DNA of 64,000 nt from Chrysomallon squamiferum (taxonomy: Eukaryota > Animalia > Mollusca), in the NCBI GenBank assembly GCA_012295275.1, contig CM022665.1:62001-126000 (forward strand), read 5' to 3'. Shown in pieces: positions 3,643 to 52,223 of this stretch. The notes beneath the pieces are model-generated. The model was not told where the DNA came from. It did not search any database and worked only from the letters and a program-made list of their open reading frames with translations. The position numbers and the translations under genes are program-made. How positions within the stretch are numbered: the first letter of the stretch is position 1; each line of letters starts with the position of its first letter.

Positions 3643-3684
<42 letters not shown>

Positions 3685-3731
3685 AGATGAAATGTTAACA
3701 GTTATGAACAAGCACATTCATGTATACACAG

Positions 3732-21983: not shown

Positions 21984-22386
21984 TTGCAGTACAATTAACA
22001 ATAGAAACAGAAAAATAAACAAACAAAAATAAAAATAAATAAGAATAGAAAGTAAATGAATAAAATGTAATAATAGTTGTAATAATAATAATAATAATAA
22101 CGACAACAACACAAGAACTAATACAGCAATAGTGATAACAATTATAACAGCAATAACAAGATTATTAAATATATCAATAAGTAAGTAAGTAAATAAATAA
22201 ATAAATAAATAAATAAAGTGTAGTCAAATAAAGCTGCAATATAGCTCCAACTGCATGTTTGTATTTCTTTTTATTTCACTAGGTTCGTCACTACTTTCTT
22301 CAGATACAAGCAATTCATCAACTATACGAACCAAATCAAATAAAATATTCGTAATATTAATTCTACTGAATATATCAGATATCAGA

Positions 22387-25602: not shown

Positions 25603-25633
<31 letters not shown>

Positions 25634-26303: not shown

Positions 26304-26363
26304 CTAAATCCTGAAAGATCCTCTTTATCATGTTCACCTGCTTATCACTTAGCTCTGTAAGCT
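26304..26363 (-). CDS. Candidate micro-exon, 60 nt, phase 1-1
   Basis: catcttacag|(E)LTELSDKQVNMIKRIFQDL g|gtactt. Confidence 0.6.
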
Positions 26364-27044
26364 CTGTAAGATGAAATTAAAACAAACATTTTAAAATTAA
26401 CATAATGAAGTGTTGTTCGTCACTCTGTTATGATTTTACATTAGATATAGGTGATGCAATTTTCACAAATTTTGTTTAAACGGATCAGTTATATTCATCA
26501 TTTATCTCGCCAATCTAGAATCGAGATTATGAGTTGTAAGGATGAATTGTTCTAAGCATCCACAGACGACATCGAGATAGAAATTTCAGCGTTTTCCTCA
26601 GATGAGTACGCGTTTCACTTAAAATACAAAATGCAAAAAGTGTTTCTCCGTATCTGCAAATAACTGTCAGAAACAGAGCTTACGGATCTATTAAATGGTT
26701 CTCCTTTTGATAATAATAACAATAATAAAGAAAGAAAGAAAGAAAGAAAGAAAGAAATGAACAAAAATAAATAAAATAAAATTAGAAAAAACAAAAAAAC
26801 AAGAACTTTACGAATCCCCTCAAGTCAGACATTACGGAGGGTGACTATGCAAATTACGTTTTAATAAAACGAGCGCGACGTGTTACATAAAGCATGACTC
26901 TAATCTAAGAAGGTTTAATCATGTAATAATATATTTATTTTTTACTACTTTCTGTGTTCTTTCATCATCTTCCAAAATTACTAAATTTACAAAATTAAAA
27001 AAACAAAAACAAAAAAAAAAAAAAAAAAATTAAATTGTACATAC

Positions 27045-27113
27045 CTTTTTCTACTATATTTAAAGGTGAACAAGTTTTGTGTAGATTGATTTCCATTACT
27101 TTATCGGTTAAAC
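27045..27113 (-). CDS. Candidate micro-exon, 69 nt, phase 1-1
   Basis: aaattacag|(G)LTDKVMEINLHKTCSPLNIVEK g|gtatgt. Confidence 0.7.
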
Positions 27114-27658
27114 CTGTAATTTCAGAAATATAGATAAACATAAAATGTGTAAAATTAACATCAGCTAACGTTTATAAGAAAGTAATTATTTTTCACCTAT
27201 TACATTCATGTAGTAGTCATTCAGATTATAAAAATGCACGAAGTCACAGACAGACAAACTGTTTGAAAACGAAACCAGGACATTAATGAAACTCCACGCT
27301 TATCTTTTGGGACAATTTTTAAAGCCGGGAAATAAAGGAGACATTTGTCTGACTTGCAATAATTCGAAATCACTGACAAACGTTCACTGATTAAAATAAA
27401 CAATAGATGTTGATATTCGTATATTAATTGAAAGGTAGGAGTGAGGTAAAATCAGGGTAGGGTCCTGTCAGCTACTGAAATTACAATATATAAATATTAT
27501 ATTGCATACTAAATAAGTGAATGTATAGGTAATTACTTCTTTGCTTCACAGGTATTTTTTAAAAAGAACAAAACAGAGTTGTTGACCACACAAAAGTACA
27601 GAAGATTAAATATATGACAATCACTTTATAAGTTAAGTTCAAGAACGTGTAAAAGTAC

Positions 27659-27718
27659 CTAAATCCTGAAAGATCCTCTTTATCATGTTCACCTGCTTAT
27701 CACTTAGCTCTGTAAGCT
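27659..27718 (-). CDS. Candidate micro-exon, 60 nt, identical to 26304-26363
   Basis: Part of a ~0.9 kb direct duplication offset by 1355 bp. Confidence 0.6.
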
Positions 27719-28950
27719 CTGTAAGATGAAATTAAAACAAACATTTTAAAATTAACATAATGAAGTGTTGTTCGTCACTCTGTTATGATTTTACATTAGA
27801 TATAGGTGATGCAATTTTCACAAATTTTGTTTAAAAGGATCAGTTATATTCATCATTTATCTCGCCAATCTAGAATCGAGATTATGAGTTGTAAGGATGA
27901 ATTGTTCTAAGCATCCACAGACGACATCGAGATAGAAATTTCAGCGTTTTCCTTAGATGAGTACGCGTTTCACTTTGAATACAAAATGCAAAAAGCGTTT
28001 CTCCGTATCTGCAAATAACTGTCAGAAACAGAGCTTACGGATCTATTAAATGGTTCTCTTTTTAATAATAATAACAATAATAAAGAAAGAAATAAAGAAA
28101 GAAAGAAATGAACAAAATTAAATAAAATAAAATTAGAAATAACACAAAAAAACAAGAACTTTACGAATCCCCTCAAGTCAGACATTACGGAGGGTGACTA
28201 TGCAAATTGCGTTTTAATAAAACGAGCTTCACGTGTTACATAAAGTATGACACTAAACTAAGAATGTTTAATCACGTAATAATATAGTAATTTACCTTTC
28301 TGTCCAGTAATATCACTGCCTTTATATGCTAGTAAAATTTATTTACAACTTTTCACTAATATAAATCACTAAAACTAATACGAATGCTCATATTTGTTTT
28401 GCTTGATTTTCTTTCCTTTCTGCAAGTTTTCACTTTGACAAATTGATCAACATTTGCTGAGAAGACAGTGAATACTAACCCATATGAAACTTTAAAAACT
28501 GCTGTGTTTAAAATATTTTTTGTTAGTTATGGCTAACTAAATGTTTCAACGAATAGGTTCGTATATTGTTACTGATGTAAATGAAGTTTATCAAAATAAT
28601 CAACTATTCAGTGCTGACATTAAGCAGCTACATCCACATGTGACTGCTGAATTAATAAAACTGTAAGATATACATTTCCTACAAATTTAATAATATGTGT
28701 GTATAAGTAAGATGCATTTAAAGAAGTAGAGTTCAGCTGAAAACAAAATAGAGAATTAAAAATCCTCAAGTGAGACATCGTTCCAAAGCACGAATTAGAC
28801 AGTTATTTTCTTGTTAAAAACTTAATTGATGGTGAATTTACCGAACTAAGAGTCTGAGCTGATATCATTCAGTTTATAAATTACAACTAACCAAACACAA
28901 TTTTGTGTTTTTTCATTACAGCTGAGAAATCTTTAAACTAACAAATTTAC

Positions 28951-29049
28951 CTGAAAGTTTGATGTCTGTAAATGATAATGGTGCTGCAGTGTTGTACAGG
29001 TTTATCTTCAAATTTGATAATTTATTTTCCGTCAGCTGATATCTTTGTT
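28951..29049 (-). CDS. Candidate micro-exon, 99 nt, phase 1-1
   Basis: tattacag|QRYQLTENKLSNLKINLYNTAAPLSFTDIKLS g|gtaaat. Confidence 0.68.
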
Positions 29050-29384
29050 CTGTAATACTCAATTCGACAAGGAGACAACGGAGTCTTTTGATATGAATTA
29101 ATCCTGTGCAAAATAATTAAATACACTGTTATCTACCTTTCCAGGAAATATTTTAGTCGGTTGTTTAAAGTAGAAGTTTCGGTTATTCAAACAGAGAAAG
29201 TATAAACCAAAGACAAATACTAAAAATATGTATTACTGGTATTAGTAAGTAATTAAATACTCTTTAAATACCGATGGAAGTAAATAATTAGAGTTTAGCT
29301 TAGAATATCAAAGTAACACACGTTCACCAGAAACTACTTTGATTCATCAGAACTGCAAAAGAAATTTAGGAAATAATTACGTAC

Positions 29385-29423
29385 GGATAGTAGTCCAGTG
29401 ATTCTGATTCATGAGAAATTTAT
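29385..29423 (-). CDS. Candidate micro-exon, 39 nt, phase 1-1
   Basis: ctattttcag|(D)KFLMNQNHWTTI c|gtacgt (weaker donor). Confidence 0.55.
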
Positions 29424-29789
29424 CTGAAAATAGAAATGTAGTTTCAGTAACATCAATAAAGATAAACTTTTCTAGCATTGTCAGAAATTTCCAATGCCTT
29501 TATATTGCAGTAAAATGTATTTACAACATTTCAGTAATATAAATCTGTAATACTAATACGAATGCTCATATTTGTTTTCATTGATTTTCTTTCCTTACTG
29601 CAGGTTTTCACTTTGACACACTGATAAACATTTGTTGAGAAGATAATGAATACAACCGTATATGAGACTTAAATACCGATGTAAGTAAATAATTAGAGTT
29701 TAGCTTAAAATATCAAACTAACACCCGTTCACCAGAAACTAAGTTGATTCATCATAACTGCAAAAGAAATTTAGGAAATAAGTACGTAC

Positions 29790-29828
29790 CATAATCTCTA
29801 TAGTCTTCCTCTACGCCAAGAAATGGAT
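29790..29828 (-). CDS. Candidate micro-exon, 39 nt, phase 1-1
   Basis: ctattttcag|(D)PFLGVEEDYRDY g|gtacgt. Confidence 0.65.
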
Positions 29829-31134: not shown

Positions 31135-31197
31135 CTGAATTACACGTCTGTTTCACTGTTTTTGATTTGGAAATGGCTGTCAGCTTTCGTTGTACAC
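31135..31197 (-). CDS. Candidate micro-exon, 63 nt, diverged member of the array exon family
   Basis: aaattacag|(G)VQRKLTAISKSKTVKQTCNS g|gtacat. Confidence 0.65.
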
Positions 31198-31332
31198 CTG
31201 TAATTTCAGTAACATAAATAAAGATAAACATTTCTAGCATAGTTGAGTATTATCACTGGTTTTTTATGCCAGTAAAAATTATGTACAACTTTTGACTAAT
31301 ATAAATCAGTAAAACTAATAAGAATGCTCATA

Positions 31333-32078
31333 CAGCGGTATTTCGAGTTACGAGTGCTCCAACTGACGATTTTTTCGAGTTACGAGCAGCTGCCCGGTCG
31401 ATTTTTTGCTTTCAGTTGCGAGCCAAAATCCGAGTTACGAGCGAGATTCAGATATGTCTCCGCTAGTTGGCGCAACGAACAACACAACATCCGCCGAGAA
31501 TCCCGCGACTTACTCATTTACTTCACGTGGTTACCTAACCGTGGAAGCATTTCTGTTGTGTTGTACTCGCGTTTTGTGCAATATTTTGCCAAAGTTAGTG
31601 CAAAGGTCAGTGCTGAGACGAAGAAGCGGATGATGTCCATTGAATTAAAGTACGAAATCATAGAAAAGCATGAGCGAGGTTTGCGTGTGGTCAACGTGGC
31701 TAGACAGTACATTATGTACCATACGATATGCACCATAATGAAGCAGAAGGAGTCGATAAAGGCTGTAAGTCCAGCCAAAGGCCTTAAAATAATTTCTAAG
31801 CTGAGGACCTCTGACCATGAAAAGATGGAGAAACGCTAACCCTGTCCACTTTCCAAAACCAATTTATTTCTTTACATTCTCTTTTATGTTGTTTTTATAC
31901 AATATTTGTCATTTATACATACATTTTTTTATTTGGAGTGGTTTTCGGGGGTTGAGGCTGAAACGGATTAATAGTATTTCAATTAATTTCATTTGGGGAA
32001 ATTGATTTGATATACGAGCAGTTTGAGTTACCAGCTCGGTCACGGAACGAATTAAACTCGTAAGACAAGGCACCACTG
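31333..32078 (+). mobile_element. Non-autonomous Tigger/pogo-like DNA transposon
   Basis: TA flanks; imperfect TIRs CAGCGGTATTTCGAGTTACGAG / CTCGTAAGACAAGGCACCACTG; remnant CENP-B-type HTH KKRMMSIELKYEIIEKHERGLRVVNVARQY..TICTIMKQKESIK; no DDD domain. Confidence 0.85.
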
Positions 32079-32081
32079 TAC

Positions 32082-32150
<69 letters not shown>

Positions 32151-32486
32151 CCACATATTTTTCCATATGTGCAAATAATTATCAGAAAGAGTACTTACGA
32201 ATTATGTCAAATTATATCAAACAAAACTTTAAACAAGAAATAAAGAAAGAAAGAAAGAAAGAAACAGAGAAAAATACTAAATTCTTAATCCCCCCTAAAA
32301 TATCACCGTTAAGTGCGACTATGAAAATTAGGCTCTTATAAAAAAAAAAAAAAAAAAAAAAAATTATCTGTCACATAAAGAATAAAGTTAAACAAGAAAC
32401 TTTAGTAATAACAGATTTAATTTTTGTGTTCCTGTGATTTATCATGATCCTTTCAAAACTGTTACATTTAAAAGCTTTATATAAAC

Positions 32487-32527
<41 letters not shown>

Positions 32528-32560
32528 GTAGTACCTTAATAATAATCATCATAATAATAC

Positions 32561-32620
32561 CTGCATACCTTGTATAACCCTGTTGATTGTCCGGACAATT
32601 AGTGATCAAGTTCCTTAACC
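32561..32620 (-). CDS. Candidate micro-exon, 60 nt, phase 1-1
   Basis: ttttttcag|(G)LRNLITNCPDNQQGYTRYA g|gtatta; a competing internal donor aag|gtatgc exists. Confidence 0.55.
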
Positions 32621-33383: not shown

Positions 33384-33427
<44 letters not shown>

Positions 33428-33815
33428 AAAATAATAATTATAATAAAATAATAATAAAATAAAGAAACTCCAAAATAACAGTAACACAGAACTCACTGCA
33501 ATCTCTGGCACTGATATTTCAGAAAAACAAAATATTTAAAATTAAAAAATGATCATCAGTTTACGATTATAAGAAGAAATATACTGATCATCGTATCATG
33601 AGCAACAGTCAGATGGAAGTTTAGTCCGTTTATTTAAACATTTATATCTTTGGTCTTTAAAAACACACTAGCTGCTGGCAAAACAACGAACGAAAATAAT
33701 TAAAATAATAATATAAATAAATAAATAAATAATAATAACGATCTATTCATTACTTTTAGTAAAATCACGCTGTTTAATCACAGATAGAAAAGAAAGTTAA
33801 CAATTAATAATTTAC

Positions 33816-33866
33816 CTGCATTACCCAGGTGTTTCATCCAACTATTTACTGATCCATGTGTTGCAC
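33816..33866 (-). CDS. Candidate micro-exon, 51 nt, phase 1-1
   Basis: aaattacag|(G)ATHGSVNSWMKHLGNA g|gtaaat. Confidence 0.68.
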
Positions 33867-34607: not shown

Positions 34608-34694
34608 TTGAATTACTCCTGCGTTTCATTAATTCTAATACTTTACAACACTTCAGTGTCAATCGACTCTTTACAGAAACGTCTTTTTGTAGAT
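34608..34694 (-). pseudogene. Micro-exon with mutated acceptor (87 nt, open frame, AG>AC)
   Basis: aaattacac|LQKDVSVKSRLTLKCCKVLELMKRRSNS a|gtacat. Confidence 0.55.
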
Positions 34695-35708
34695 GTGTAA
34701 TTTCAGTAACATAAAAAAACAAAAACATTCATCGCATTGCCGAGTATAATTAGTAAATATTCATACTCAGTCTATATTAATACGTAAAATCAAAACACAA
34801 AAATAAAACGTCGTACCATCAGAAACGGAAGTAAAGTAACAACAATTTATAGGTTAATTATTACACACTTGGATAAATACATTCGTTGCAAATCATGTAG
34901 ATAAGAATTATCTGTTCTGACTGTCACTGTGACACCTTTGTTTGCAATGTTGTAATATAAATCAAAGTTAATTCTAGCGTAGTCTGACTGCGCGTTCTGC
35001 TAAATTGTAAACTACAAAGCTGTACTGAAAGTTTGTATGTTATTACTCATGTAAATGAAGCTTCTCATAAATATCAACAATTCAAAGGCGATATTCAGTG
35101 CTAACATTAAGCAGCTACATCCACATGTCACTGCTGAATTAAAAACACTGTAAGATAAACATTTTCTATAAATTTCGAAAGATGTGAATGTATAATTAAG
35201 GTAATTTTAGGTATCAGAGTTGACTTGAAAACAAAATAGACAATGAAAAAGAAACCCTTAAGACTCCTCAAGTGAGACATCGTTCCAAAGCCCGATTTAG
35301 ACAGTTGTGTTCTTCTTAAAAAGCTTAATTGCTGCTGAATTTACTGAGCTAGCAGTTTGATGTGATATCCTTCTGTTTATAAATTACAACTTATCAAACA
35401 AAATTTTGTGTTCTTTCATTACATCTGAGAAATCTTTAAACTAGGCATATTTACTAAAGACAACCTTATGCTTTTTATAATTTTATATGTATACAAAGTT
35501 CAGATTGTCTTCTCTACTAAAAACATAGAATAAACTATAAACGAAAGCCAAATGCTAAACATATGTATTAATGGTGTTAATAATTAATTTTCACTAATGT
35601 AAGTAAATAATTAGATTTCTGTTTAAAGACAACAAAGTGGCACCCATACACAAGAATGTAATTTGCTTTATCATAGCTAGAGAAGAAAGTTAACAAATAA
35701 TTATGTAC

Positions 35709-38700
35709 CTGAATTAGACCTCTGTTCCACTCTTTCTGATTTGGAAATGGCTGTCGACTGTAGTTGTACTTCTGTAATTTAAGTAACGGAAATAAAGTTA
35801 AATATTTCTAGCATAGCTGAGTAGTATCAATGGCTATTTATGCCAGTAAACATTATATACCACTTTTCACTAATATAAATCACTAAACTAATACGAATTT
35901 TCATATTTGTTTTGCTTGTTTCTCTTTCTTAGCTGGATGTTTTCACTTCGACAACCTCATAAACATTTCCTGGGAAGACAGTGAATACTAACCCATGTGA
36001 GACTGTAAAAACTGCTGTCTTTAAAAGTTTTTGTGTTGTTAGTTACAGCTTACTAAATGTTTCACCGAAAAGTGCGAAAACCACTTTGTAACAAAGATAT
36101 ACTTCTAAACGTTTTCTAGAAGTATTTAGTAACTACTCATAAGTAGTCAATATTAATACGTAAAATCAAACATCAGACACTGAAGTAAAGTAACAACAAT
36201 TTATAGGTTAATTATTACACACTTGGATAAATATATTCGTTGCAAATCATGTAGATAAGAATTATCTGTTCTGACTGTCACTGTGACACCTCTGTTTGCA
36301 ATGTTGTAATGGAAATCAAAGTTAATTCTAGCGTAGTCTGACTGCGCGTTCTGCTAAATTGTAAACTACAAAGCTGTACTGAAAGTTTGTATGTTATTAC
36401 TCATGTAAATGAAGCTTCTCATAAATATCAACAATTCAAAGGCGATATTCAGTCCTGACATTAAGCAGCTACATCCACATGTCACTGCTGAATTAAAAAC
36501 ACTGTAAGATATACATTTTCTATAAATTTCGAAAGATGTGAATGTATAATTAAGGTAATTTTAGGTATCAGAGTTGACTTGAAAAGAAAATAGACAATGA
36601 AAAAGAAACCCTTAAGACTCCTCAAGTGAGACATCGTTCCAAAGCCCGATTTAGACAGTTGTGTTCTTCTTAAAAAGCTTAATTGCTGCTGAATTTACTG
36701 AGCTAGCAGTTTGATGTGATATCCTTCTGTTTATAAATTACAACTTATCAAACAAAATTTTGTGTTCTTTCATTACATCTGAGAAATCTTTAAACTAGGC
36801 ATATTTACTAAAGACAACCTTATGTTTTTCATAATTTTATATGTATACAAAGTTCAGATTGTCTTCTCTACTAAAAACATAGAATAAACTATAAACGAAA
36901 GCCAAATGCTAAACATATGCATTAATGGTGTTAATAATTAATTTTGACTAATATATGCAAATAATTAGATTTCTGTTTAAAGACAACAAAGTGGCACCCA
37001 TACACAAGAATGTAATTTGCTTTATCATAGCTAGAGAAGAAAGTTAACAAATAATTATGTACCTGAATTAGACCTCTGTTCCACTCTTTCTGATTTGGAA
37101 ATGGCTGTCGACTGTAGTTGTACTTCTGTAATTTAAGTAACGTAAATAAAGTTAAATATTTCTAGCATAGCTGAGTAGTATCAATGGCTATTTATGCCAG
37201 TAAACATTATATACCACTTTTCACTAATATAAATCACTAAACTAATACGAATTTTCATATTTGTTTTGCTTGTTTCTCTTTCTTAGCTGGATGTTTTCAC
37301 TTCGACAACCTCATAAACATTTCCTGGGAAGACAGTGAATACTAACCCATGTGAGACTGTAAAAACTGCTGTCTTTAAAAGTTTTTGTGTTGTTAGTTAC
37401 AGCTTACTAAATGTTTCACCGAAAAAGTGCGAAAACCACTTTGTAACAAAGATATACTTCTAAACGTTTTCTAGAAGTATTTAGTAACTACTCATAAGTA
37501 GTCAATATTAATACGTAAAATCAAACATCAGACACTGAAGTAAAGTAACAACAATTTATAGGTTAATTATTACACACTTGGATAAATATATTCGTTGCAA
37601 ATCATGTAGATAAGAATTATCTGTTCTGACTGTCACTGTGACACCTCTGTTTGCAATGTTGTAATGGAAATCAAAGTTAATTCTAGCGTAGTCTGACTGC
37701 GCGTTCTGCTAAATTGTAAACTACAAGGCTGTACTCAAAGATTTTATATTATTACTCATGTAAATGAAGCTTCTCATAAATATCAACAATTCAAAGGCGA
37801 TATTCAGTGCTGACATTAAGCAGCTACATCCACATGTCACTGCTGAATTAAAAACACTGTAAGATATACATTTTCTATAAATTTCGAAAGACGTGAATGT
37901 ATAATTAAGGTAATTTTAGGTATCAGAGTTGACTTGAAAACAAAATAGAAAGTGAAAAAGAAACCCTTAAGACTCCTCAAGTGAGACATCGTTCCAAAGC
38001 CCGATTTAGACAGTTGTGTTCTTCTTAAAAAGCTTAATTGCTGCTGAATTTACTGAGCTAGCAGTTTGATGTGATGTCCTTCTGTTTATAAATTACAACT
38101 TATCAAACAAAATTTTGTGTTCTTTCATTACATCTGAGAAATCTTTAAACTAGGCATATTAACTAAAGACAACCTTATGTTTTTTTATAATTTTATATGT
38201 ATACAAAGTTCAGATTGTCTTCTCTACTAAAAACATAGAATAAACTATAAACGAAAGCCAAATGCTAAACATATGTATTAATGGTGTTAATAATTAATTT
38301 TCACTAATGTAAGTAAATAATTAGATTTCTGTTTAAAGACAACAAAGTGGCACCCATACACAAGAATGTAATTTGCTTTATCATAGCTAGAGAAGAAAGT
38401 TAACAAATAATTATGTACCTGAATTAGACCTCTGTTCCACTCTTTCTGATTTGGAAATGGCTGTCGACTGTAGTTGTACTTCTGTAATTTAAGTAACGGA
38501 AATAAAGTTAAATATTTCTAGCATAGCTGAGTAGTATCAATGGCTATTTATGCCAGTAAACATTATATACCACTTTTCACTAATATAAATCACTAAACTA
38601 ATACGAATTTTCATATTTGTTTTGCTTGTTTCTCTTTCTTAGCTGGATGTTTTCACTTCGACAACCTCATAAACATTTCCTGGGAAGACAGTGAATACTA

Positions 38701-41213
38701 ACCCATGTGAGACTGTAAAAACTGCTGTCTTTAAAAGTTTTTGTGTTGTTAGTTACAGCTTACTAAATGTTTCACCGAAAAAGTGCGAAAACCACTTTGT
38801 AACAAAGATATACTTCTAAACGTTTTCTAGAAGTATTTAGTAACTACTCATAAGTAGTCAATATTAATACGTAAAATCAAACATCAGACACTGAAGTAAA
38901 GTAACAACAATTTATAGGTTAATTATTACACAGTTGGATAAATATATTCGTTGCAAATCATGTAGATAAGAATTATCTGTTCTGACTGTCACTGTGACAC
39001 CTCTGTTTGCAATGTTGTAATGGAAATCAAAGTTAATTCTAGCGTAGTTTGACTGCGCGTTCTGCTAAATTGTAAACTACAAAGCTGTACTGAAAGTTTG
39101 TATGTTATTACTCATGTAAATGAAGCTTCTCATAAATATCAACAATTCAAAGGCGATATTCAGTGCTGACATTAAGCAGCTACATCCACATGTCACTGCT
39201 GAATTAAAAACACTGTAAGATATACATTTTCTATAAATTTCGAAAGATGTGAATGTATAATTAAGGTAATTTTAGGTATCAGAGTTGACTTGAAAACAAA
39301 ATAGACAATGAAAAAGAAACCCTTAAGACTCCTCAAGTGAGACATCGTTCCAAAGCCCGATTTAGACAGTTGTGTTCTTCTTCTTAAAAGCTTAATTGCT
39401 GCTGAATTTACTGAGCTAGCAGTTTGATGTGATATCCTTCTGTTTATAAATTACAACTTATCAAACAAAATTTTGTGTTCTTTCATTACATCTGAGAAAA
39501 ATCTTAAACTAGGCATATTTACTAAAGACAACCTTATGCTTTTTATAATTTTATATGTATACAAAGTTCAGATTGTCTTCTCTACTAAAAACATAGAATA
39601 AACTATAAACGAAAGCCAAATGCTAAACATATGCATTAATGGTGTTAATAATTAATTTTGACTAATATATGCAAATAATTAGATTTCTGTTTAAAGACAA
39701 CAAAGTGGCACCCATACACAAGAATGTAATTTGCTTTATCATAGCTAGAGAAGAAAGTTAACAAATAATTATGTACCTGAATTAGACCTCTGTTCCACTC
39801 TTTCTGATTTGGAAATGGCTGTCGACTGTAGTTGTACTTCTGTAATTTAAGTAACGTAAATAAAGTTAAATATTTCTAGCATACCTGAGTAGTATCAATG
39901 GCTATTTATGCCAGTAAACATTATATACCACTTTTCACTAATATAAATCACTAAACTAATACGAATTTTCATATTTGTTTTGCTTGTTTCTCTTTCTTAG
40001 CTGGATGTTTTCACTTCGACAACCTCATAAACATTTCCTGGGAAGACAGTGAATACTAACCCATGTGAGACTGTAAAAACTGCTGTCTTTAAAAGTTTTT
40101 GTGTTGTTAGTTACAGCTTACTAAATGTTTCACCGAAAAAGTGCGAAAACAACTTTGTAACAAAGATATACTTCTAAACGTTTTCTAGAAGTATGTACCT
40201 AACTAGAAGTATTTAGTAACTACTAATACATAGTCAATATTAATACGTAAAATCAAACATCAGACATGGAAGTAAAGTAACAACAATTTATAGGTTAATT
40301 ATTACACAGTTGGATAAATATATTCGTTGCAAATCATGTAGATAAGAATTATCTGTTCTGACTGTCACTGTGACACCTCTGTTTGCAATGTTGTAATGGA
40401 AATCAAAGTTAATTCTAGCGTAGTTTGACTGCGCGTTCTGCTAAATTGTAAACTACAAAGCTGTACTGAAAGTTTGTATGTTATTACTCATGTAAATGAA
40501 GCTTCTCATAAATATCAACAATTCAAAGGCGATATTCAGTGCTGACATTAAGCAGCTACATCCACATGTCACTGCTGAATTAAAAACACTGTAAGATATA
40601 CATTTTCTATAAATTTCGAAAGATGTGAATGTATAATTAAGGTAATTTTAGGTATCAGAGTTGACTTGAAAACAAAATAGACAATGAAAAAGAAACCCTT
40701 AAGACTCCTCAAGTGAGACATCGTTCCAAAGCCCGATTTAGACAGTTGTGTTCTTCTTAAAAAGCTTAATTGCTGCTGAATTTACTGAGCTAGCAGTTTG
40801 ATGTGATATCCTTCTGTTTATAAATTACAACTTATCAAACAAAATTTTGTGTTCTTTCATTACATCTGAGAAAAATTTTAAACTAGGCATATTAACTAAA
40901 GACAACCTTATGTTTTTTATAATTTTATATGTATACAAAGTTCAGATTGTCTTCTCTACTAAAAACATAGAATAAACTATAAACGAAAGCCAAATGCTAA
41001 ACATATGTATTAATGGTGTTAATAATTAATTTTGACTAATATAAGTAAATAATTAGATTTCTGTTTAAAGACAACAAAGTGGCACCCATACACAAGAATG
41101 TAATTTGCTTTATCATAGCTAGAAAAGAAAGTTAACAAATAATTATGTACCTGAATTAGACCTCTGTTCCACTCTTTCTGATTTGGAAATGGCTGTCGAC
41201 TGTAGTTGTACAT
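35709..41213 (-). CDS. Five 63-nt candidate micro-exons, type A (35709-35771, 37063-37125, 38419-38481, 39777-39839, 41151-41213)
   Basis: ttaaattacag|(E/D)VQLQSTAISKSERVEQRSNS g|gtacat, once per unit. Confidence 0.62.
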
Positions 41214-42524
41214 CTGTAATTTAAGTAACGTAAATAAAGATTAAATATTTCTAGCATAGCTGAGTAGTATCAATGGCTATTTATGCCAGTAAACATTATA
41301 TACCACTTTTCACTAATATAAATCACTAAACTAATACGAATTTTCATATTTGTTTTGCTTGTTTCTCTTTCTTAGCTGGATGTTTTCACTTCGACAACCT
41401 CATAAAACATTTCCTGGGAAGACAGTGAATACTAACCCATGTGAGACTGTAAAACTGCTGTCTTTAAAAAAAAAGACAATTTGTGTTGTTAGTTACAGCT
41501 TACTAAATGTTTCACCGAAAAAGTGCGAAAACCACTTTGTAACAAAGATATACTTCTAAACGTTTTCTAGAAGTATTTAACTAGAAGTAACTTACTAACT
41601 ACTCATACGTAGTCAATATTAATACGTAAAATCAAACATCAGACATGGAAGTAAAGTAACAACAATTTATAGGTTTATTATAACCTGGATAAATACATTC
41701 GTTGCAAATCATGTAGATAAGAATTATCTCTTCAGTCTGTCACTATGACATCTCTGTTTGGAATGTTGTAATGTAAATCAAAGTTAATTCTAGTGTAGTC
41801 TGACTGCGCGTTCTGCTAAACTGTAAACTACAAAGCTGTATTGAAAGTTTGTATATTATTACTCATGTAAATGAAGCTTGTCATAAATATCAACAATTCA
41901 AAGGCGATATTCAGTGCTGACATTAAGCAGCTACATTCACATGCCACTGCTGAATTAAAAACACTGTAAGATATACATTTACTATCAATTTCGAAACATG
42001 TGAATGTATAATTAAGGTAATTTTAGGTATCAGAGTTGACTTGAAAACAAAATAGACAATGAAAAACAAACCCTTAAGACTCCTCAACTGAGACATCGTT
42101 CCAAAGCCCGATTTGGACAGTTGTGTTCTTCTTAAAAAGCTTAATTGCTGCTGAATTTTCTGAGCTAGCAGTTTGATGTTATATCCTTCTGTTTATAAAT
42201 TACAACTTATCAAACAAAATTTTGTGTTCTTTCATTACATCTGAGAAAACTTTAAACCAAGCATATTAACTAAAGACCATCTTATGATTTTTATAATTTT
42301 ATATGTATACATAGTTCCGATTGTCTTCTCTATTAATAATATAGAGTAAACTATAAACGAAAGCCAAATGCTAAACATATGTATTAATTGTGTTAATAAT
42401 TAATTTTGACTAATATATGCAAATAATTAGATTTCTGTTTAAAGACAACAAATTGGCACCCATGCACAAGAATGTAATTTGCTTTATCATAGCTAGAAAA
42501 GAAAGTTAACAAGTAATTATGTAC

Positions 42525-45500
42525 CTGAATTACACCTCTGTTCCACTCTTTCTGATTTGGAAATGGCTGTCGGCTGTCGTTGTACATCTGTAATTTAAGT
42601 AACGTAAATAAAGATAAACATTTCTAGCATAGTTGAGTAGTATCAACGGCTATTTATGCCAGTAAAAATTATATACCACTTTTCACTAATATAAATCACT
42701 AAACTAATACGAATTTTCATATTTGTTTTGCTTGTTTCTCTTTCTTAGCTGGATGTTTTCACTTCGACAACCTCATAAACATTTCCTGGGAAGACAGTGA
42801 ATACTACCCCATGTGAGACTGTAAAAACTGCTGTCTTTAAAAGATTTTGTGTTGTTAGTTACAGCTTACTAAATGTTTCACCGAAAAAGTGCGAAAACCA
42901 CTTTGTAACAAAATATACTTCTAAACGTTTTCTAGAAGTATCTACCTAACTAGAAGTATTTACTAACTACTCATACGTAGTCAATATTAATACGTAAAAT
43001 CAAACATCAGACATGGAAGTAAAGTAACAACAATTTATAGGTTTATTATAACCTGGATAAATACATTCGTTGCAAATCATGTAGAAAAGAATTATCTCTT
43101 CAGTCTGTCACTATGACATCTCTGTTTGGAATGTTGTAATGTAAATCAAAGTTAATTCTAGTGTAGTCTGACTGCGCGTTCTGCTAAACTGTAAACTACA
43201 AAGCTGTATTGAAAGTTTGTATATTATTACTCATGTAAATGAAGCTTGTCATAAATATCAACAATTCAAAGGCGATATTCAGTGCTGACATTAAGCAGCT
43301 ACATTCACATGCCACTGCTGAATTAAAAACACTGTAAGATATACATTTACTATCAATTTCGAAACATGTGAATGTATAATTAAGGTAATTTTAGGTATCA
43401 GAGTTGACTTGAAAACAAAATAGACAATGAAAAAGAAACCCTTAAGACTCCTCAACTGAGACATCGTTCCAAAGCCCGATTTGGACAGTTGTGTTCTTCT
43501 TAAAAAGCTTAATTGCTGCTGAATTTACTGAGCTAGCAGTTTGATGTGATATCCTTCTGTTTATAAATTACAACTTATCAAACAAAATTTTGTGTTCTTT
43601 CATTACGTCTGAGAAAACTTTAAACCAAGCATATTAACTAAATACCATCTTATGATTTTTATAATTTTATATGTATACATAGTTCCGATTGTCTTCTCTA
43701 TTAATAATATAGAATAAACTACAAACGAAAGCCAAATGCTAAACATATGTATTAATTGTGTTAATAATTAATTTTGACTAATATATGCAAATTATTAGAT
43801 TTCTGTTTAAAGACAACAAATTGGCACCCATGCACAAGAATGTAATTTGCTTTATCATAGCTAGAAAAGAAAGTTAACAAGTAATTATGTACCTGAATTA
43901 CACCTCTGTTCCACTCTTTCTGATTTGGAAATGGCTGTCGGCTGTCGTTGTACATCTGTAATTTAAGTAACGTAAATAAAGATAAACATTTCTAGCATAG
44001 TTGAGTAGTATCAACGGCTATTTAAGCCAGTACAAATTATATACCACTTTTCACTAATATAAATCACTAAACTAATACGAATTTTCATATTTGTTTTGCT
44101 TGTTTCTCTTTCTTAGCTGGATGTTTTCACTTCGACAACCTCATAAACATTTCCTGGGAAGACAGTGAATACTACCCCATGTGAGACTGTAAAAACTGCT
44201 GTCTTTAAAAGTTTTTCTGTTGTTAGTTACAGCTTACTAAATGTTTCACCGAAAAAGTGCGAAAACCACTTTGTAACAAAGATATACTTCTAAACGTTTT
44301 CTAGAAGTATCTACCTAACTAGAAGTATTTACTAACTACTCATACGTAGTCAATATTAATACGTAAAATCAAACATCAGACATGGAAGTAAAGTAACAAC
44401 AATTTATAGGTTTATTATAACCTGGATAAATACATTCGTTGCAAATCATGTAGATAAGAATTATCTCTTCAGTCTGTCACTATGACATCTCTGTTTGGAA
44501 TGTTGTAATGTAAATCAAAGTTAATTCTAGTGTAGTCTGACTGCGCGTTCTGCTAAACTGTAAACTACAAAGCTGTATTGAAAGTTTGTATATTATTACT
44601 CATGTAAATGAAGCTTGTCATAAATATCAACAATTCAAAGGCGATATTCAGTGCTGACATTAAGCAGCTACATTCACATGCCACTGCTGAATTAAAAACA
44701 CTGTAAGATATACATTTACTATCAATTTCCAAACATGTGAATGTATAATTAAGGTAATTTTAGGTATCAGAGTTGACTTGAAAACAAAATAGACAATGAA
44801 AAAAAACCCTTAAGACTCCTCAACTGAGACATCGTTCCAAAGCCCGATTTGGACAGTTGTGTTCTTCTTAAAAAGCTTAATTGCTGCTGAATTTACTGAG
44901 CTAGCAGTTTGATGTGATATCCTTCTGTTTATAAATTACAACTTATCAAACAAAATTTTGTGTTCTTTCATTACATCTGAGAAAACTTTAAACCAAGCAT
45001 ATTAACTAAATACCATCTTATGATTTTTATAATTTTATATGTATACATAGTTCCGATTGTCTTCTCTATTAATAATATAGAATAAACTATAAACGAAAGC
45101 CAAATGCTAAACATATGTATTAATTGTGTTAATAATTAATTTTGACTAATATATGCAAATTATTAGATTTCTGTTTAAAGACAACAAATTGGCACCCATG
45201 CACAAGAATGTAATTTGCTTTATCATAGCTAGAAAAGAAAGTTAACAAGTAATTATGTACCTGAATTACACCTCTGTTCCACTCTTTCTGATTTGGAAAT
45301 GGCTGTCGGCTGTCGTTGTACATCTGTAATTTAAGTAACGTAAATAAAGATAAACATTTCTAGCATAGTTGAGTAGTATCAACGGCTATTTATGCCAGTA
45401 AAAATTATATACCACTTTTCACTAATATAAATCACTAAACTAATACGAATTTTCATATTTGTTTTGCTTGTTTCTCTTTCTTAGCTGGATGTTTTCACTT

Positions 45501-48500
45501 CGACAACCTCATAAACATTTCCTGGGAAGACAGTGAATACTACCCCATGTGAGACTGTAAAAACTGCTGTCTTTAAAAGTTTTTGTGTTGTTAGTTACAG
45601 CTTACTAAATGTTTCACCGAAAAAGTGCGAAAACCACTTTGTAACAAAGATATACTTCTAAACGTTTTCTAGAAGTATCTACCTAACTAGAAGTATTTAC
45701 TAACTACTCATACGTAGTCAATATTAATACGTAAAATCAAACATCAGACATGGAAGTAAAGTAACAACAATTTATAGGTTTATTATAACCTGGATAAATA
45801 CATTCGTTGCAAATCATGTAGATAAGAATTATCTCTTCAGTCTGTCACTATGACATCTCTGTTTGGAATGTTGTAATGTAAATCAAAGTTAATTCTAGTG
45901 TAGTCTGACTGCGCGTTCTGCTAAACTGTAAACTACAAAGCTGTATTGAAAGTTTGTATATTATTACTCATGTAAATGAAGCTTGTCATAAATATCAACA
46001 ATTCAAAGGCGATATTCAGTGCTGACATTAAGCAGCTACATTCACATGCCACTGCTGAATTAAAAACACTGTAAGATATACATTTACTATCAATTTCCAA
46101 ACATGTGAATGTATAATTAAGGTAATTTTAGGTATCAGAGTTGACTTGAAAACAAAATAGACAATGAAAAAGAAACCCTTAAGACTCCTCAACTGAGACA
46201 TCGTTCCAAAGCCCGATTTGGACAGTTGTGTTCTTCTTAAAAAGCTTAATTGCTGCTGAATTTACTGAGCTAGCAGTTTGATGTGATATCCTTCTGTTTA
46301 TAAATTACAACTTATCAAACAAAATTTTGTGTTCTTTCATTACATCTGAGAAAACTTTAAACCAAGCATATTAACTAAATACCATCTTATGATTTTTATA
46401 ATTTTATATGTATACATAGATCCGATTGTCTTCTCTATTAATAATATAGAATAAACTATAAACGAAAGCCAAATGCTAAACATATGTATTAATTGTGTTA
46501 ATAATTAATTTTGACTAATATATGCAAATAATTAGATTTCTGTTTAAAGACAACAAATTGGCACCCATGCACAAGAATGTAATTTGCTTTATCATAGCTA
46601 GAAAAGAAAGTTAACAAGTAATTATGTACCTGAATTACACCTCTGTTCCACTCTTTCTGATTTGGAAATGGCTGTCGGCTGTCGTTGTACATCTGTAATT
46701 TAAGTAACGTAAATAAAGATAAACATTTCTAGCATAGTTGAGTAGTATCAACGGCTATTTATGCCATTAAAAATTATATACCACTTTTCACTAATATAAA
46801 TCACTAAACTAATACGAATTTTCATATTTGTTTTGCTTGTTTCTCTTTCTTAGCTGGATGTTTTCACTTCGACAACCTCATAAACATTTCCTGGGAAGAC
46901 AGTGAATACTACCCCATGTGAGACTGTAAAAACTGCTGTCTTTAAAAGTCTTTGTGTTGTTAGTTACAGCTTACTAAATGTTTCACCGAAAAAGTGCGAA
47001 AACCACTTTGTAACAAAGATATACTTCTAAACGTTTTCTAGAAGTATCTACCTAACTAGAAGTATTTACTAACTACTCATACGTAGTCAATATTAATACG
47101 TAAAATCAAACATCAGACATGGAAGTAAAGTAACAACAATTTATAGGTTTATTATAACCTGGAATAAATACATTCGTTGCAAATCATGTAGATAAGAATT
47201 ATCTCTTCAGTCTGTCACTATGACATCTCTGTTTGGAATGTTGTAATATAAATCAAAGTTAATTCTAGTGTAGTCTGACTGCGCCTTCTGCTAAACTGTA
47301 AACTACAAAGCTGTATTGAAAGTTTGTATATTATTACTCATGTAAATGAAGCTTGTCATAAATATCAACAATTCAAAGGCGATATTCAGTGCTGACATTA
47401 AGCAGCTACATTCACATGCCACTGCTGAATTAAAAACACTGTAAGATATACATTTACTATCAATTTCCAAACATGTGAATTCATAGTTAAGGTAATTTTA
47501 GGTATCAGAGTTGACTTGAAAACAAAATAGACAATGAAAAAGAAACCCTTAAGACTCCTCAACTGAGACATCGTTCCAAAGCCCGATTTGGACAGTTGTG
47601 TTCTTCTTAAAAAGCTTAATTGCTGCTGAATTTACTGAGCTAGCAGTTTGATGTGATATCCTTCTGTTTATAAATTACAACTTATCAAACAAAATTTTGT
47701 GTTCTTTCATTACATCTGAGAAAACTTTAAACCAAGCATATTAACTAAAGACCATCTTATGATTTTTATAATTTTATATGTATACATAGATCCGATTGTC
47801 TTCTCTATTAATAATATAGAATAAACTATAAACGAAAGCCAAATGCTAAACATATGTATTAATTGTGTTAATAATTAATTTTGACTAATATATGCAAATA
47901 ATTAGATTTCTGTTTAAAGACAACAAATTGGCACCCATGCACAAGAATGTAATTTGCTTTATCATAGCTAGAAAAGAAAGTTAACAAGTAATTATGTACC
48001 TGAATTACACCTCTGTTCCACTCTTTCTGATTTGGAAATGGCTGTCGGCTGTCGTTGTACATCTGTAATTTAAGTAACGTAAATAAAGATAAACATTTCT
48101 AGCATAGTTGAGTAGTATCAACGGCTATTTATGCCAGTAAAAATTATATACCACTTTTCACTAATATAAATCACTAAACTAATACGAATTTTCATATTTG
48201 TTTTGCTTGTTTCTCTTTCTTAGCTGGATGTTTTCACTTCGACAACCTCATAAACATTTCCTGGGAAGACAGTGAATACTACCCCATGTGAGACTGTAAA
48301 AACTGCTGTCTTTAAAAGTCTTTGTGTTGTTAGTTACAGCTTACTAAATGTTTCACCGAAAAAGTGCGAAAATCACTTTGTAACAAAGATATACTTCTAA
48401 ACGTTTTCTAGATGTATCTACCTAACTAGAAATATTTACTAACTACTCATACTTAGTCAATATTAATACGTAAAATCAAACATCAGACATGGAAGTAAAG

Positions 48501-49423
48501 TAACAACAATTTATAGGTTTATTATAACCTGGATAAATACATTCGTTGCAAATCATGTAGATAAGAATTATCTCTTCAGTCTGTCACTATGACATCTCTG
48601 TTTGGAATGTTGTAATATAAATCAAAGTTAATTCTAGTGTAGTCTGACTGCGCGTTCTGCTAAACTGTAAACTACAAAGCTGTATTGAAAGTTTGTATAT
48701 TATTACTCATGTAAATGAAGCTTGTCATAAATATCAACAATTCAAAGGCGATATTCAGTGCTGACATTAAGCAGCTACATCCACATGTCACTGCTGAATT
48801 AAAAACACTGTAAGATATACATTTCTATCAATTTCGAAATGTATAATTAAGGTAATTTTAGGTATCAGAGTTGACTTGAAAACAAAATAGACAATGAAAA
48901 AGAAACCCTTAAGACTCCTCAACTGAGACATCGTTCCAAAGCCCGATTTGGACAGTTGTGTTCTTCTTAAAAAGCTTAATTGCTGCTGAATTTACTGAGC
49001 TAGCAGTTTGATGTGATATCCTTCTGTTTATAAATTACAACTTATCAAACAAAATTTTGTGTTCTTTCATTACATCTGAGAAAACTTTAAACTAAGCATA
49101 TTAAATAACAATACTATTATGCCTTTAATAATTTTATATGTATATAAAGTTCAGATTCCCTTGTCTCTATTAATAAAATAGAATAAACTATAAACGAAAG
49201 ACAAATGCTAAAGATATGTATTGATGGTGTTAATAATTAATTTTCACTAATGTAAGTAAATAATTAGGTTTCTGTTTAAAACAACAAAGTGACACCCGTG
49301 CACAAGAATGTAATTTGCTTTATCGTAGCTAGAAAAGAAAGTTAACAAGTAATTATGTACCTGAATTACACCTCTGTTCCACTCTTTCTGATTTGGAAAT
49401 GGCTGTCGGCTGTCGTTGTACAT
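42525..49423 (-). CDS. Six 63-nt candidate micro-exons, type B (42525-42587, 43893-43955, 45261-45323, 46630-46692, 48000-48062, 49361-49423)
   Basis: aaattacag|(D)VQRQPTAISKSERVEQRCNS g|gtacat, once per unit. Confidence 0.62.
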
Positions 49424-50078
49424 CTGTAATTTCAGTAACGTAGATAAAGATAAACATTTCTAGCATAGTTGAGTAGTATCAACGGCTATTTATGCCAGTA
49501 AAAATTATATACCACTTTTCACTAATATAAATCACTAAACTAATACGAATGTTCATATTTGTTTTTCTTGATTTTCTTTCTTAGCTGGATGTTTTAACTT
49601 TGACAAACTAATAAACATTTTTTGAGAAGACAATGACTACTACCCCACATGAGACTTTAAAGACTGCTGTCTTTAAAAAAATGTTGTGCTGTTAGTTACA
49701 GCTTAATAAATGTTTCAGCGAAAAAGTGAGAAAACCTCTTTGTAACAAAGATATACTTCTAAACGTTTTCTAGAAGTATCTAACTGACCAGAAGTATTTA
49801 CTAACTACTCATACGTAGTCAATATTAATACGTAAAATCAAAACACAAACATAAAACGTCGTACCATCAGACATGGAAGTAAAGTAACAACAATTTATGG
49901 GTTAATTATTACACACTTGGATAAATATATTCGTTGGAAATCACGTAGATAAGAATTATCGGTTCAGTCTGTCACTAACACGTTTGTCCTGAGATCATCA
50001 GTTTATAGATTACAACTTATCAACAAAATGCTGTGTACTTTCATTACCGCTGAGAAATCATAAAACCAACAAATTTAC

Positions 50079-50156
50079 CTGAACGACATTCGTGGATAAT
50101 TCCATTGACACTTTCAAAGCCGTTATTCAACAGGAAATTCCGTCTTAATGTTTCTT
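50079..50156 (-). CDS. Candidate micro-exon, 78 nt, phase 1-1
   Basis: catattacag|(E)ETLRRNFLLNNGFESVNGIIHECRS g|gtaaat. Confidence 0.68.
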
Positions 50157-51441
50157 CTGTAATATGAAATTAAAAAAAAACATTTTAGTTTAACATCAGT
50201 CCAGTGTGTGTGCACCTACTTCCAGGAAGACTCTTTGCCAATGTAACATAATACCACTAACATTTTATAGCTCTAAGTATTTTTCATAAATTTTTTGTTC
50301 GATATATTGAATTTGATAAAATATAAAAGATATTAAAATTAATACAAATTTATATGATTTGTCTTTCTTTCTTTATCGGAGAAAGTCACTGACAAAGTTA
50401 CCCAGTTCCTGAAGGAGACAACGAATTCCCTTGATATGAATTAATCCTGTGCAAAATAATTAAATACACTTTTGTCCAGCTTTCCAGGAAATATTTTAGT
50501 CGGTTGTTTGAAGTAGGAGTTTCGGTTAATCAAACAGAGAAAGTGTAAGCCAAAGACTAACACAAAAAATATGTATTACTGGTATTAGTAATTAATTAAA
50601 AACTCTTTAAATGCCGATGCGAGTAAATAATTGTTGTTTAGCTTAAAATATGAAAGTAACACCCGTTCATCAGAAACTACTTTGATTCATCAGAACTGCA
50701 AAAGACATTCAGGAAATAATTACGTATCTAAAGCCCAGCAGCATTTCTTTCCTTGAGACATTTCTCTTCTGATCGAAGTCCTACAGATTTAGTTTCAATA
50801 ACGTAAATAAAGATAAACATTTCTAGCATTGTCAAGTATTACCAATGCCTTTATATGCCAGTAAAATGTACTTACAACTTTTCAGTAATATAAATGACTA
50901 AAACTAATACGAATGCTCATATATATTTTGGTTGATTTTGTTTCTTTACTGCAAGTTTTCACTTTGACAAACTAATAAACATTTTTTGAGAAGACAATGA
51001 CTACTACCCCACATGAGGCTTTAAAGACTGCTGTCTTTACAAAATGTTGTGCTGTTAGTTACAGCTTAATAAATGTTTCAGCGAAAAAGTGAGAAAACCT
51101 CTTTGTAACAAAGATATACTTCTAAACGTTTTCTAGAAGTATCTAACTGACCAGAAGTATTTACTAACTACTCATACGTAGTCAATATTAATACGTAAAA
51201 TCAAAACACAAAAATAAAACGTCGTACCATCAGACATGGAAGTAAAGTAACAACAATTTATGGGTTAATTATTACACACTTGGATAAATATATTCGTTGG
51301 AAATCACGTAGATAAGAATTATCGGTTCAGTCTGTCACTATGACGTTTGTCCTGAGATCATCAGTTTATAGATTACAACTTATCAACAAAATGCTGTGTA
51401 CTTTCATTACCGCTGAGAAATCATAAAACCAACAAATTTAC

Positions 51442-51519
51442 CTGAACGACATTCGTGGATAATTCCATTGACACTTTCAAAGCCGTTATTCAACACGAAA
51501 TTCCGTCTTGATGTTTCTT
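51442..51519 (-). CDS. Candidate micro-exon, 78 nt, duplicate of 50079-50156
   Basis: (E)ETSRRNFVLNNGFESVNGIIHECRS. Confidence 0.68.
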
Positions 51520-52139
51520 CTGTAATATGAAATTATAAAAAAACATTTTAGTTTAACATCAGTCCAGTGTGTGTGCACCTACTTCCAGGAAGACTCTTTG
51601 CCAATGTAACATAATACCACTAACATTTTATAGCTGTAAGTATTTTTCATAAATTTTTTGTTCGATATATTGAATTTGATAAAATATAAAAGATATTAAA
51701 ATTAATACAAAATTATATGATTTGTCTTTCTTTCTTTATCGGAGAAAGTCACTGACAAAGTTACCCAGTTCCTGAAGGAGACAACGAATTCCCTTGATAT
51801 GAATTAATCCTGTGCAAAATAATTAAATACACTTTTGTCCAGCTTTCCAGGAAATATTTTAGTCGGTTGTTTGAAGTAGAAGTTTCGGTTAATCAAACAG
51901 AGAAAGTGTAAACCAAAGACTAACACAAAAAATATGTATTACTGGTATTAGTAATTAATTAAAAACTCTTTAAATGTCGATGAATTTAGACAGTTGTGTT
52001 CTTCTTAAAAAGTTAATTGCTGCTGAATTTACTGAACTAACAGTTCGTCCTGAGATCATCAGTTTATAGATTACAACTTATCAACAAAATTCTGTGTACT
52101 TTCATTAGAGGTCAGAAATCATAAAACTAAGAGATTTAC

Positions 52140-52223
52140 CTGAATAATTTGAGTTTATAAAGAGTTGTGGGTTGTTGTTGTTAAAGTTTGATAATGCCAT
52201 TTCCCTCAGTTGATCTCTTTGTT
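52140..52223 (-). CDS. Candidate micro-exon, 84 nt, phase 1-1
   Basis: catattacag|(E)QRDQLREMALSNFNNNNPQLFINSNYS g|gtaaat; 5' part resembles exon 28951-29049. Confidence 0.68.

Follow-up and report, generated by a model that had tools for sequence, protein, structure and literature searches.

A chain of short, frame-keeping exon candidates upstream of a BIR-BIR-RING gene in Chrysomallon squamiferum: a possible bait or degron leader

Based on the exon layout, RNA contigs and homologue searches presented here, we describe a chain of 23 short exon candidates upstream of an inhibitor-of-apoptosis (IAP) gene in the mollusc Chrysomallon squamiferum, within a window (the whole stretch of DNA analysed) of 64,000 nucleotides from contig CM022665.1 of assembly GCA_012295275.1 (positions 62,001 to 126,000). 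The window has ~29% G+C and holds two IAP copies arranged tail to tail, copy A on the plus strand from 1131 and copy B on the minus strand from 25547 down to 20361; the chain precedes copy B. The 23 candidates keep the reading frame and are laid out in duplicated units, the last of them is spliced to the large exon of the gene, and in some pairs divergence is confined to the exons. We propose, with a probability of about one in three, that the array encodes a hypervariable bait or degron leader whose cleavage or modification would remove the IAP and let the cell die. What is new is the placing of a known kind of exon-array diversifier on an intracellular death regulator; the array is real and in part supported by RNA, and its function is predicted.

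The minus strand does contain, from 52223 down to 26304, all 23 segments listed in an earlier note on this DNA, and they measure 39-99 nt as claimed there; read in that direction, their lengths are 84, 78, 78, 63 (eleven times), 51, 60, 63, 39, 39, 99, 60, 69 and 60 nt (Table 1). The structural part of the claim holds throughout: each segment has a YAG acceptor (CAG in every case), a GT donor, a length divisible by three and no stop in phase 1, all but one of the 23 end in G, none of the 276 ordered junction pairs forms a stop, and the total of 1473 nt (491 codons) agrees with the stated maximum of ~490 aa. Two descriptions had to be corrected. There are 14 exact sequences, falling into 10-11 families, rather than 10 distinct ones; and only three of the 23 are 51 nt or shorter, the definition of a micro-exon (PMC4317164; this and the other PMC sources are cited from the portions of their text available to us), so that "short exons" suits better. 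The statement that no ATG lies near the large exon is weakened by an in-frame ATG at 26331 in the last short exon, one of six exons with such a codon (the first has it at 52200, in the context GAA ATG G); the upstream exon expected from the same observation does exist, as the RNA joint described below demonstrates. A further exon suggested at 59624 was rejected, the candidate at 59722-59624 being closed in all three frames. Most of the 23 candidates are probably real exons. The one at 32620 is doubtful because a stronger donor yields a frame-shifting 52-nt exon.

The segments are far above chance. A splice scan blind to length and frame, with approximate generic splice weights and a score of at least 5, was made with nine of the eleven array copies left out. 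Among the best candidates, 11 of 15 on the minus strand were symmetric and open in phase 1 (the other four being two in phase 0 and two in phase 2), against 0 of 7 on the opposite strand, a control on which the proposal could have failed. The flank controls gave 1/15 and 0/12, and 100 shuffles gave a mean of 0.46 symmetric phase-1 candidates with a maximum of 3. Nine of the 14 previously listed segments in the scanned region were recovered exactly, two with another boundary, and three were missed; the distal 84-, 78- and 51-nt candidates are among the best splice scores and are open in phase 1 only. One of the scan's 11 (31612-31535) lies inside a transposon-like insert, is absent from the earlier list and was discarded.

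Five sequencing runs contain parts of the gene, and the contigs of four of them (X1, X2, X3 and X5; X4, with a small share, was excluded) were compared over 22445-26650. X1, X2 and X3 are three samples from one study and from other individuals, and X5 is DNA-like, covering introns. The predicted joining of the last short segment to the BIR exon was found in all three RNA runs and not in the DNA-like one: a 756-nt GT-AG intron on the minus strand connects 25547 to 26304, skipping a decayed 69-type slot at 25720..25789. Core joints 22542-22725, 22803-23097 and ~23270-23594 also occur in X1, X2 and X3, which makes four core or leader joints in RNA contigs that may derive from paralogues. One X2 contig extends 143 nt beyond the acceptor of the large exon, 83 more than the last exon. 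Loose contig ends 5' of the 60-nt exon correspond to the end of an 81-nt relative of the 69-nt exon (24/30 and 25/28 bases), and a loose end 3' of a 60-type exon corresponds to the start of the 69/81 type (20/26 bases); a third 5' partner of a 60-type exon has no good match in the window. As these ends are never exact to copy B, they point to a paralogue or allele, and the chained layout would thus be expressed from more than this copy; the 69/81- and 60-type exons, being chained in such related copies, are not mutually exclusive there. The donor at 22465 leads to the RING exon in X2 and X3 and to another 78-type exon in X1, and no joint that skips an exon within this locus is among those listed for the compared interval. 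The RNA contigs also contain unspliced unit sequence. In X5, contigs cover the unit at a depth of ~1000-1800, the BIRs at ~1000 and the acidic stretch of the large exon at ~100, which hints weakly at a large number of paralogues.

The array was likely built by tandem duplication of exon-plus-intron units. Its centre consists of eleven units in which neighbours are most alike, and their graded differences of 0.5-10% make an assembly artefact unlikely; further duplicated units comprise one 405-bp pair and pairs of 1.2-1.4 kb. All eleven copies have kept both splice sites without a single exon indel, and gaps occur in 128 intron columns. Acceptor and donor flanks are homologous across units, so the symmetry is partly inherited; it is also needed for the survival of a tandemly duplicated exon, and is therefore by itself no proof of alternative splicing. 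Exon lengths have drifted through eight values, all multiples of three, and two dead slots recognised by their homologous flanks, of 87 nt at 34694 and 81 nt at +9412, have likewise stayed open. Dead and ambiguous slots stand beside the intact candidates (Table 1), and scrambled remnants of short-exon units lie outside both genes at 8934-10378: the 81-nt remnant at +9412, with its donor lost, gives the best match to the RNA loose ends, and a 113-nt slot at -10014 is closed. Even under the dullest reading, exon birth, death and frame selection are captured in one locus.

The most telling feature, absent from the earlier note, is a divergence that appears limited to the exons within units whose introns are nearly identical. 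In the 405-bp pair, 150 bases upstream are 98.7% and 110 bases downstream 92.7% identical, and the 39-nt exons between them are 49% identical (45% when shuffled), so that 20 of 39 exon bases (20-23) differ against 10 of 260 flank bases (Fisher p 1.5e-13). The 84- and 78-nt exons share 55% (shuffle expectation 47%) next to a downstream intron at 90%, and the 78- and 99-nt exons 51% next to one at 84%; the upstream flanks of these two pairs have diverged too (57-59%). All 13 coding changes found among recent duplicates alter the amino acid (p ~0.026 for an expected non-synonymous share of 0.76); two of them fall in junction codons. Such a pattern would fit either a pressure to change with length and frame kept, or gene conversion smoothing the introns around exons that are kept different. 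Templating of exons from neighbouring introns was considered and rejected: two of 13 tests gave p < 0.05, and neither was the 39-nt exon (p 0.11).

The core to which this leader is attached is that of an ordinary IAP, and the BIR-BIR-RING architecture claimed for it was borne out. Pfam finds BIR domains in the large exons of both copies and in the next exon of copy B (PF00653, E 7e-24 in B's large exon and E 6.5e-13 in its BIR2 exon); the last exon of B matches a C3HC4 RING (PF13920, E 4e-15). A HMMER search returned 4318 matches, of which the best 150 were examined; the closest named ones are from the peltospirid snail Gigantopelta aegis, and none of the 150 exceeds 47% identity. With XP_041379548.1 (P0012) and XP_041350670.1 (P0051) of that species, the BIR1 identities are 56% and 51% and those of the second half of BIR2 78% and 81%; the RING is 69% identical to that of B, and the peptide of the 79-nt linker exon is shared (p 0.001). 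The C-terminal BIR of B is split over two exons, as in protostome XIAP/DIAP2-like proteins (PMC13159474). The acidic part of the large exon (24856-25387, minus strand) is a 30-nt (10-aa) tandem repeat of ~18 copies; in Gigantopelta P0051 the corresponding position, ahead of BIR1, is occupied by an unrelated 5-aa repeat.

The leader, by contrast with this core, is without detectable homologue in the searches made. None of seven leader peptides matched Pfam, Rfam gave no match, and the short-exon peptides show no homology to the Gigantopelta leaders (combined p 0.68 and 0.69, against 0.001 for a positive control); a likeness of motifs between the two, noticed by eye, was not significant and was dropped. 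Word-based protein searches gave one match among 7990 candidates, one among 195 and, with the first 150 aa of the large exon as query, none among 80; the ESM Atlas offered generic BIR clusters only, under 0.9, and a metagenome scan two distant loci at 43%, which were not used. The first exon has no signal-like hydrophobic segment, the highest 11-residue hydropathy being -0.47 (no dedicated predictor was applied). A rough motif count over 149 homologues puts the median leader at ~43 aa; three have at least 800 aa, two of them with leucine-rich repeats (LRRs). The named orthologues have leaders of ~200-260 aa, and lophotrochozoan two-BIR plus RING relatives of the DIAP1-like / XIAP-like kind ~230-450 aa, compared with ~820 aa in B if all its exons are used. 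Among the database IAPs, some are fused to sensor domains (P0086, P0108, P0078, P0006): LRR with four BIR and RING (one from the sponge Corticium candelabrum), COR-B with four BIR and RING, and seven BIR with FIIND and CARD from Xenopus tropicalis.

With all candidates chained, the spliced frame is open from the ATG at 52200 to the RING stop. We suggest that the mRNA takes in most candidates and is translated from this codon, giving a protein of 1305 aa with BIR1 at residue 822, and that unequal crossing-over alters the number of exons between paralogues and alleles, selection keeping the frame and favouring new amino acids. The leader is predicted to be largely unfolded and domain-free and to hold cleavage sites or degrons, comparable to insect IAP leaders, TEP bait regions and the NLRP1 tripwire; once a pathogen cleaved or modified it, the IAP would become unstable, caspases would be released, and the infected cell would die. 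Exon skipping may add variety and is not required. Several observations are consistent with this proposal: a reading frame preserved well beyond the controls, the RNA joint of the last exon, the exon-confined divergence in the 39/39, 84/78 and 78/99 pairs, the uniformly non-synonymous changes, and a charge-hydropathy comparison that places the 63-nt, 84-nt and acidic parts among unfolded sequences. There are precedents for its ingredients: in lepidopteran IAPs a leader degron drives turnover upon baculovirus infection (PMC4966970), NLRP1 acts as a tripwire (PMC7857732), and deep-sea mussels and an intranuclear parasite are in conflict over apoptosis (PMC11521996). A wider version, which we think unlikely, is a mollusc IAP family with hypervariable short-exon cassettes, reshuffled by unit duplication and exon skipping so that each gene, allele or cell would carry another set of pathogen-protease baits on the brake of apoptosis; if true, it would amount to an intracellular, exon-shuffled repertoire of tripwire receptors in an invertebrate.

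Several observations weigh against the bait or degron proposal. The 60-, 69-, 78- and 99-nt peptides fall on the folded side of the charge-hydropathy line. The recent 78/78, 60/60 and 63/63 pairs show no exon excess, the 63-nt array varies at 4 of 63 exon columns against 174 of 1266 intron columns (p 0.13), and eleven near-identical copies of one 21-aa unit add length rather than variety. Homogenisation of introns by gene conversion can imitate fast exons. At the locus itself, the RNA comparison reaches one of the 23 exons, in a single study of other individuals, and a start at the ATG at 26331 would give a chain of 831 aa without including the array. Finally, an aromatic residue at position -3 of the RING aids RING dimerisation; copy B has Ser there, against Phe or Tyr in 76 of the 96 RING-ended homologues among the best 150 HMMER matches, and its self-ubiquitination may thus be weak.

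The same data can be read in other ways. The array might be a constitutive spacer grown by unequal crossing-over, that is, a tolerated low-complexity leader with all exons included and only the frame under selection, conversion smoothing the introns. The identity gradient along the eleven copies is typical of unequal crossing-over, the amino acids carry no purifying signal, simple repeats have expanded independently in the large exon and in the leader of Gigantopelta P0051, and leaders of ~200-260 aa suffice for the named orthologues. However, neutral conversion should not halt at both exon edges and leave the 39-nt exon at shuffle-level identity with length and frame unchanged; this, the uniformly non-synonymous changes and the lack of a local template for the 39-nt change lead us to regard a spacer as possible rather than probable. 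Another reading, close to that of the earlier note, is combinatorial or mutually exclusive splicing of the kind known from the micro-exon genes (MEGs) of Schistosoma, Dscam and the snail TEP2: each mRNA would carry a subset of exons, and the gene would supply a varied set of sensors or decoys for binding. It is true that every subset would stay in frame, that 60-type exons have three different 5' partners among the RNA loose ends and that the 22465 donor has two targets. None of these partners matches the locus exactly, however, and they may stem from paralogues, possibly numerous if contig depth is any guide; the listed joints include none that skips an exon within the locus, duplication alone predicts the symmetry, and we hold this explanation to be rather doubtful.

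We think it quite unlikely that only the proximal exons are used, with a start at the ATG at 26331 or 27686 and with the distal units, chiefly the 63-nt array, being silent duplicates or belonging to another transcript. This would agree with the in-frame ATG of the RNA-confirmed exon, which has A at -3, with the several dead slots inside the array, with the doubtful 60/52-nt exon at 32620, which could break the frame, with the lack of an adjoining array in copy A and with the unspliced unit sequence in RNA contigs. Against it stand the top-range splice scores of the distal 84-, 78- and 51-nt candidates, open in phase 1 alone, the retention of both sites in 11 of 11 array copies with no exon indel where introns have 128 gapped columns, and the X2 contig that runs past the last exon. 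A derivation from the decayed LRRs of an LRR-IAP fusion, one repeat per exon, was suggested by the LRR- or COR-bearing IAPs among the homologues (P0086, P0108, P0078) and by exons of 60-84 nt, near the size of one LRR; it is very improbable and was rejected, since an LRR profile (built on seven repeats only) scores the leader at 1.5 bits, with 37 of 200 shuffles as high and true carriers at 75-79, a position-specific scoring matrix test gave p 0.92, and Pfam found no match.

The bait or degron leader that we favour has partial parallels in known systems. The MEGs of Schistosoma likewise combine many small symmetric exons with fast amino-acid change, and in VAL-6 a region of this type is linked to a known domain (PMC4350168; for the size range of MEG exons, see PMC10526429). 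However, according to the text available, MEGs are secreted proteins with a signal peptide, apparently restricted to flatworms, for which alternative splicing has been demonstrated (PMC4350168), whereas the 39-99-nt exons of copy B precede a cytoplasmic BIR-RING core without a signal-like segment. As the array accounts for only 491 of ~1305 codons and no signal peptide is apparent, copy B is better described as a two-BIR RING IAP than as a member of the MEG family. Tandem homologous exons formed by duplication, seen here in homologous flanks and units, are a feature shared with Dscam and the TEP bait arrays: Biomphalaria TEP2 has 12 tandem mutually exclusive bait exons over 30 kb, and together with the Chlamys and Drosophila TEPs it shows variable exons of unequal length spread over tens of kb in an immune gene, in a region exposed to proteases (PMC7016707). 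TEPs differ in being secreted, with an internal variable region and one exon per mRNA, whereas the array of copy B is N-terminal and intracellular, with some exons chained. The leader degrons of insect IAPs and the tripwires of NLRP1 and CARD8 likewise place control of the turnover of a death regulator upon infection in an N-terminal or linker region (PMC4966970, PMC7857732, PMC10249858); in the sections available they are not described as exon arrays, and for copy B the degron or cleavage site is a prediction.

An IAP with a short-exon leader array was not found among the listed matches of the literature searched, which lay outside subscription journals and whose supplements could hold such gene models. 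The accessible text of an IAP survey (PMC13159474) has no occurrence of "alternative splicing" or "low-complexity", and that of PMC8917759 reports alternative splicing that alters the domain content of IAPs and does not report a leader array. Two IAP surveys, as far as their available text goes, sort proteins by domain content, and a domain-free leader of short exons would thus be invisible to them; such exons are also easily missed by gene predictors. Mollusc IAP families are greatly expanded. Exon divergence amid alike introns points to a possible arms race at the IAP N-terminus; if the proposal is true, it would link the expansion to pathogen sensing and add an intracellular example to the few invertebrate exon-array diversifiers.

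Table 1. Features of the window (positions within the 64,000-nucleotide stretch).
Position	Strand	Feature	Support
1131..5249	+	Copy A, a paralogue with the same core; TGA at 3785-3787 in the BIR2 exon; the 664 bases preceding the shared block lack short-exon units	
20361..20539	-	RING exon, includes the stop; C-terminus ASLC	
21118..21192	-	75-nt symmetric linker exon candidate	
22244..22321	-	Duplicate slot of 78-type linker, donor lost	
22465..22542	-	78-nt symmetric linker exon	RNA
22725..22803	-	79-nt linker exon, conserved in Gigantopelta	RNA
23097..23275	-	BIR2, second half	RNA joints, Pfam
23595..25547	-	Large exon (1953 nt), encoding an acidic region of ~335 aa with 10-aa repeats, BIR1, a Ser/Thr linker and BIR2 (first half)	
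25720..25789	-	Decayed 69-type slot, donor absent	
26304..26363	-	60-nt exon, RNA-spliced to large exon; in-frame ATG 26331	3/3 RNA runs
27045..27113	-	69-nt exon candidate; in RNA, 60-type exons are joined to its 81-nt-type relatives	
27659..27718	-	60-nt exon candidate, same sequence as 26304-26363	
28951..29049	-	99-nt exon candidate; peptide related to 84- and 69-nt ones	
29385..29423	-	39-nt exon candidate b; weak donor (CC/GT, cut between)	
29790..29828	-	39-nt exon candidate a	splice scan
31135..31197	-	63-nt exon candidate, a diverged copy with 7 changes, none of them synonymous	
32561..32620	-	60-nt exon candidate, doubtful	splice scan
33469..33510	-	Ambiguous slot, intact acceptor 33510: 14 nt to strong donor (frame-breaking) or 42 nt to weak (lengths by inspection)	
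33816..33866	-	51-nt exon candidate	splice scan
34608..34694	-	Dead slot, 87 nt, acceptor reads AC; still open in phase 1	
34747..49977	-	Eleven exon+intron units of ~1.37 kb in tandem; 90-99.5% identity; two subfamilies	
35709..35771	-	63-nt exon candidate, array copy 11	splice scan
37063..37125	-	63-nt exon candidate, array copy 10	
38419..38481	-	63-nt exon candidate, array copy 9	
39777..39839	-	63-nt exon candidate, array copy 8	
41151..41213	-	63-nt exon candidate, array copy 7	
42525..42587	-	63-nt exon candidate, array copy 6	
43893..43955	-	63-nt exon candidate, array copy 5	
45261..45323	-	63-nt exon candidate, array copy 4	
46630..46692	-	63-nt exon candidate, array copy 3	
48000..48062	-	63-nt exon candidate, array copy 2	
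49361..49423	-	63-nt exon candidate, array copy 1	
50079..50156	-	78-nt exon candidate b; 2 non-synonymous changes vs a	
50728..50786	-	Dead slot of 59 nt that has lost both splice sites; unit homologous to 39-nt units; not open	
51442..51519	-	78-nt exon candidate a	splice scan
52140..52223	-	84-nt exon candidate, array's first; in-frame ATG 52200 = likely start	splice scan
52724..52746	-	23-nt element, exon-like and non-symmetric, preceding the first ATG; perhaps 5' untranslated	

Small-scale duplication has also affected the BIR2-RING linker, with exons of 78, 78 (dead) and 75 nt in copy B and one of 78 nt in copy A; an orphan fragment of a 78-type linker exon lies far upstream of copy B (56610-56690, minus strand). 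Copy A is 97% identical to copy B over 665-2542 and 75-90% elsewhere, which suggests that 665-2542 is a recent conversion tract. Between the first 1.4 kb of the two large exons, 25 codons differ non-synonymously and three synonymously, clustered in BIR1. A third, partial IAP copy (19222-20068, minus strand), just downstream of B, consists of the end of the large exon and the BIR2 exon and is frameshifted. The 23-nt element has nine homologous copies in the window with mostly decayed sites, and both this decay and its non-symmetric length are as expected outside a coding frame. It is carried by a second, older family of degenerate repeats with 65-88% identity, found upstream of both IAP copies (52250-63290, 1-660, 5969-6804, 8392-8789, 10307-11754), which may hold a promoter or 5' untranslated exons. 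At 31333-32078, an insertion of ~745 bp has imperfect terminal inverted repeats (15/22 by inspection), is bordered by TA at either end and contains an open stretch of 179 aa; Pfam gave no match for the latter, which we take to resemble a DNA-binding start of the Tigger/pogo type. An isolated GC-richer stretch at 14345-14530 (minus strand) has a translation with one internal stop; a 20-aa piece of it had no Pfam match, and the translation presumably resembles the last exon of an aromatic amino-acid hydroxylase.

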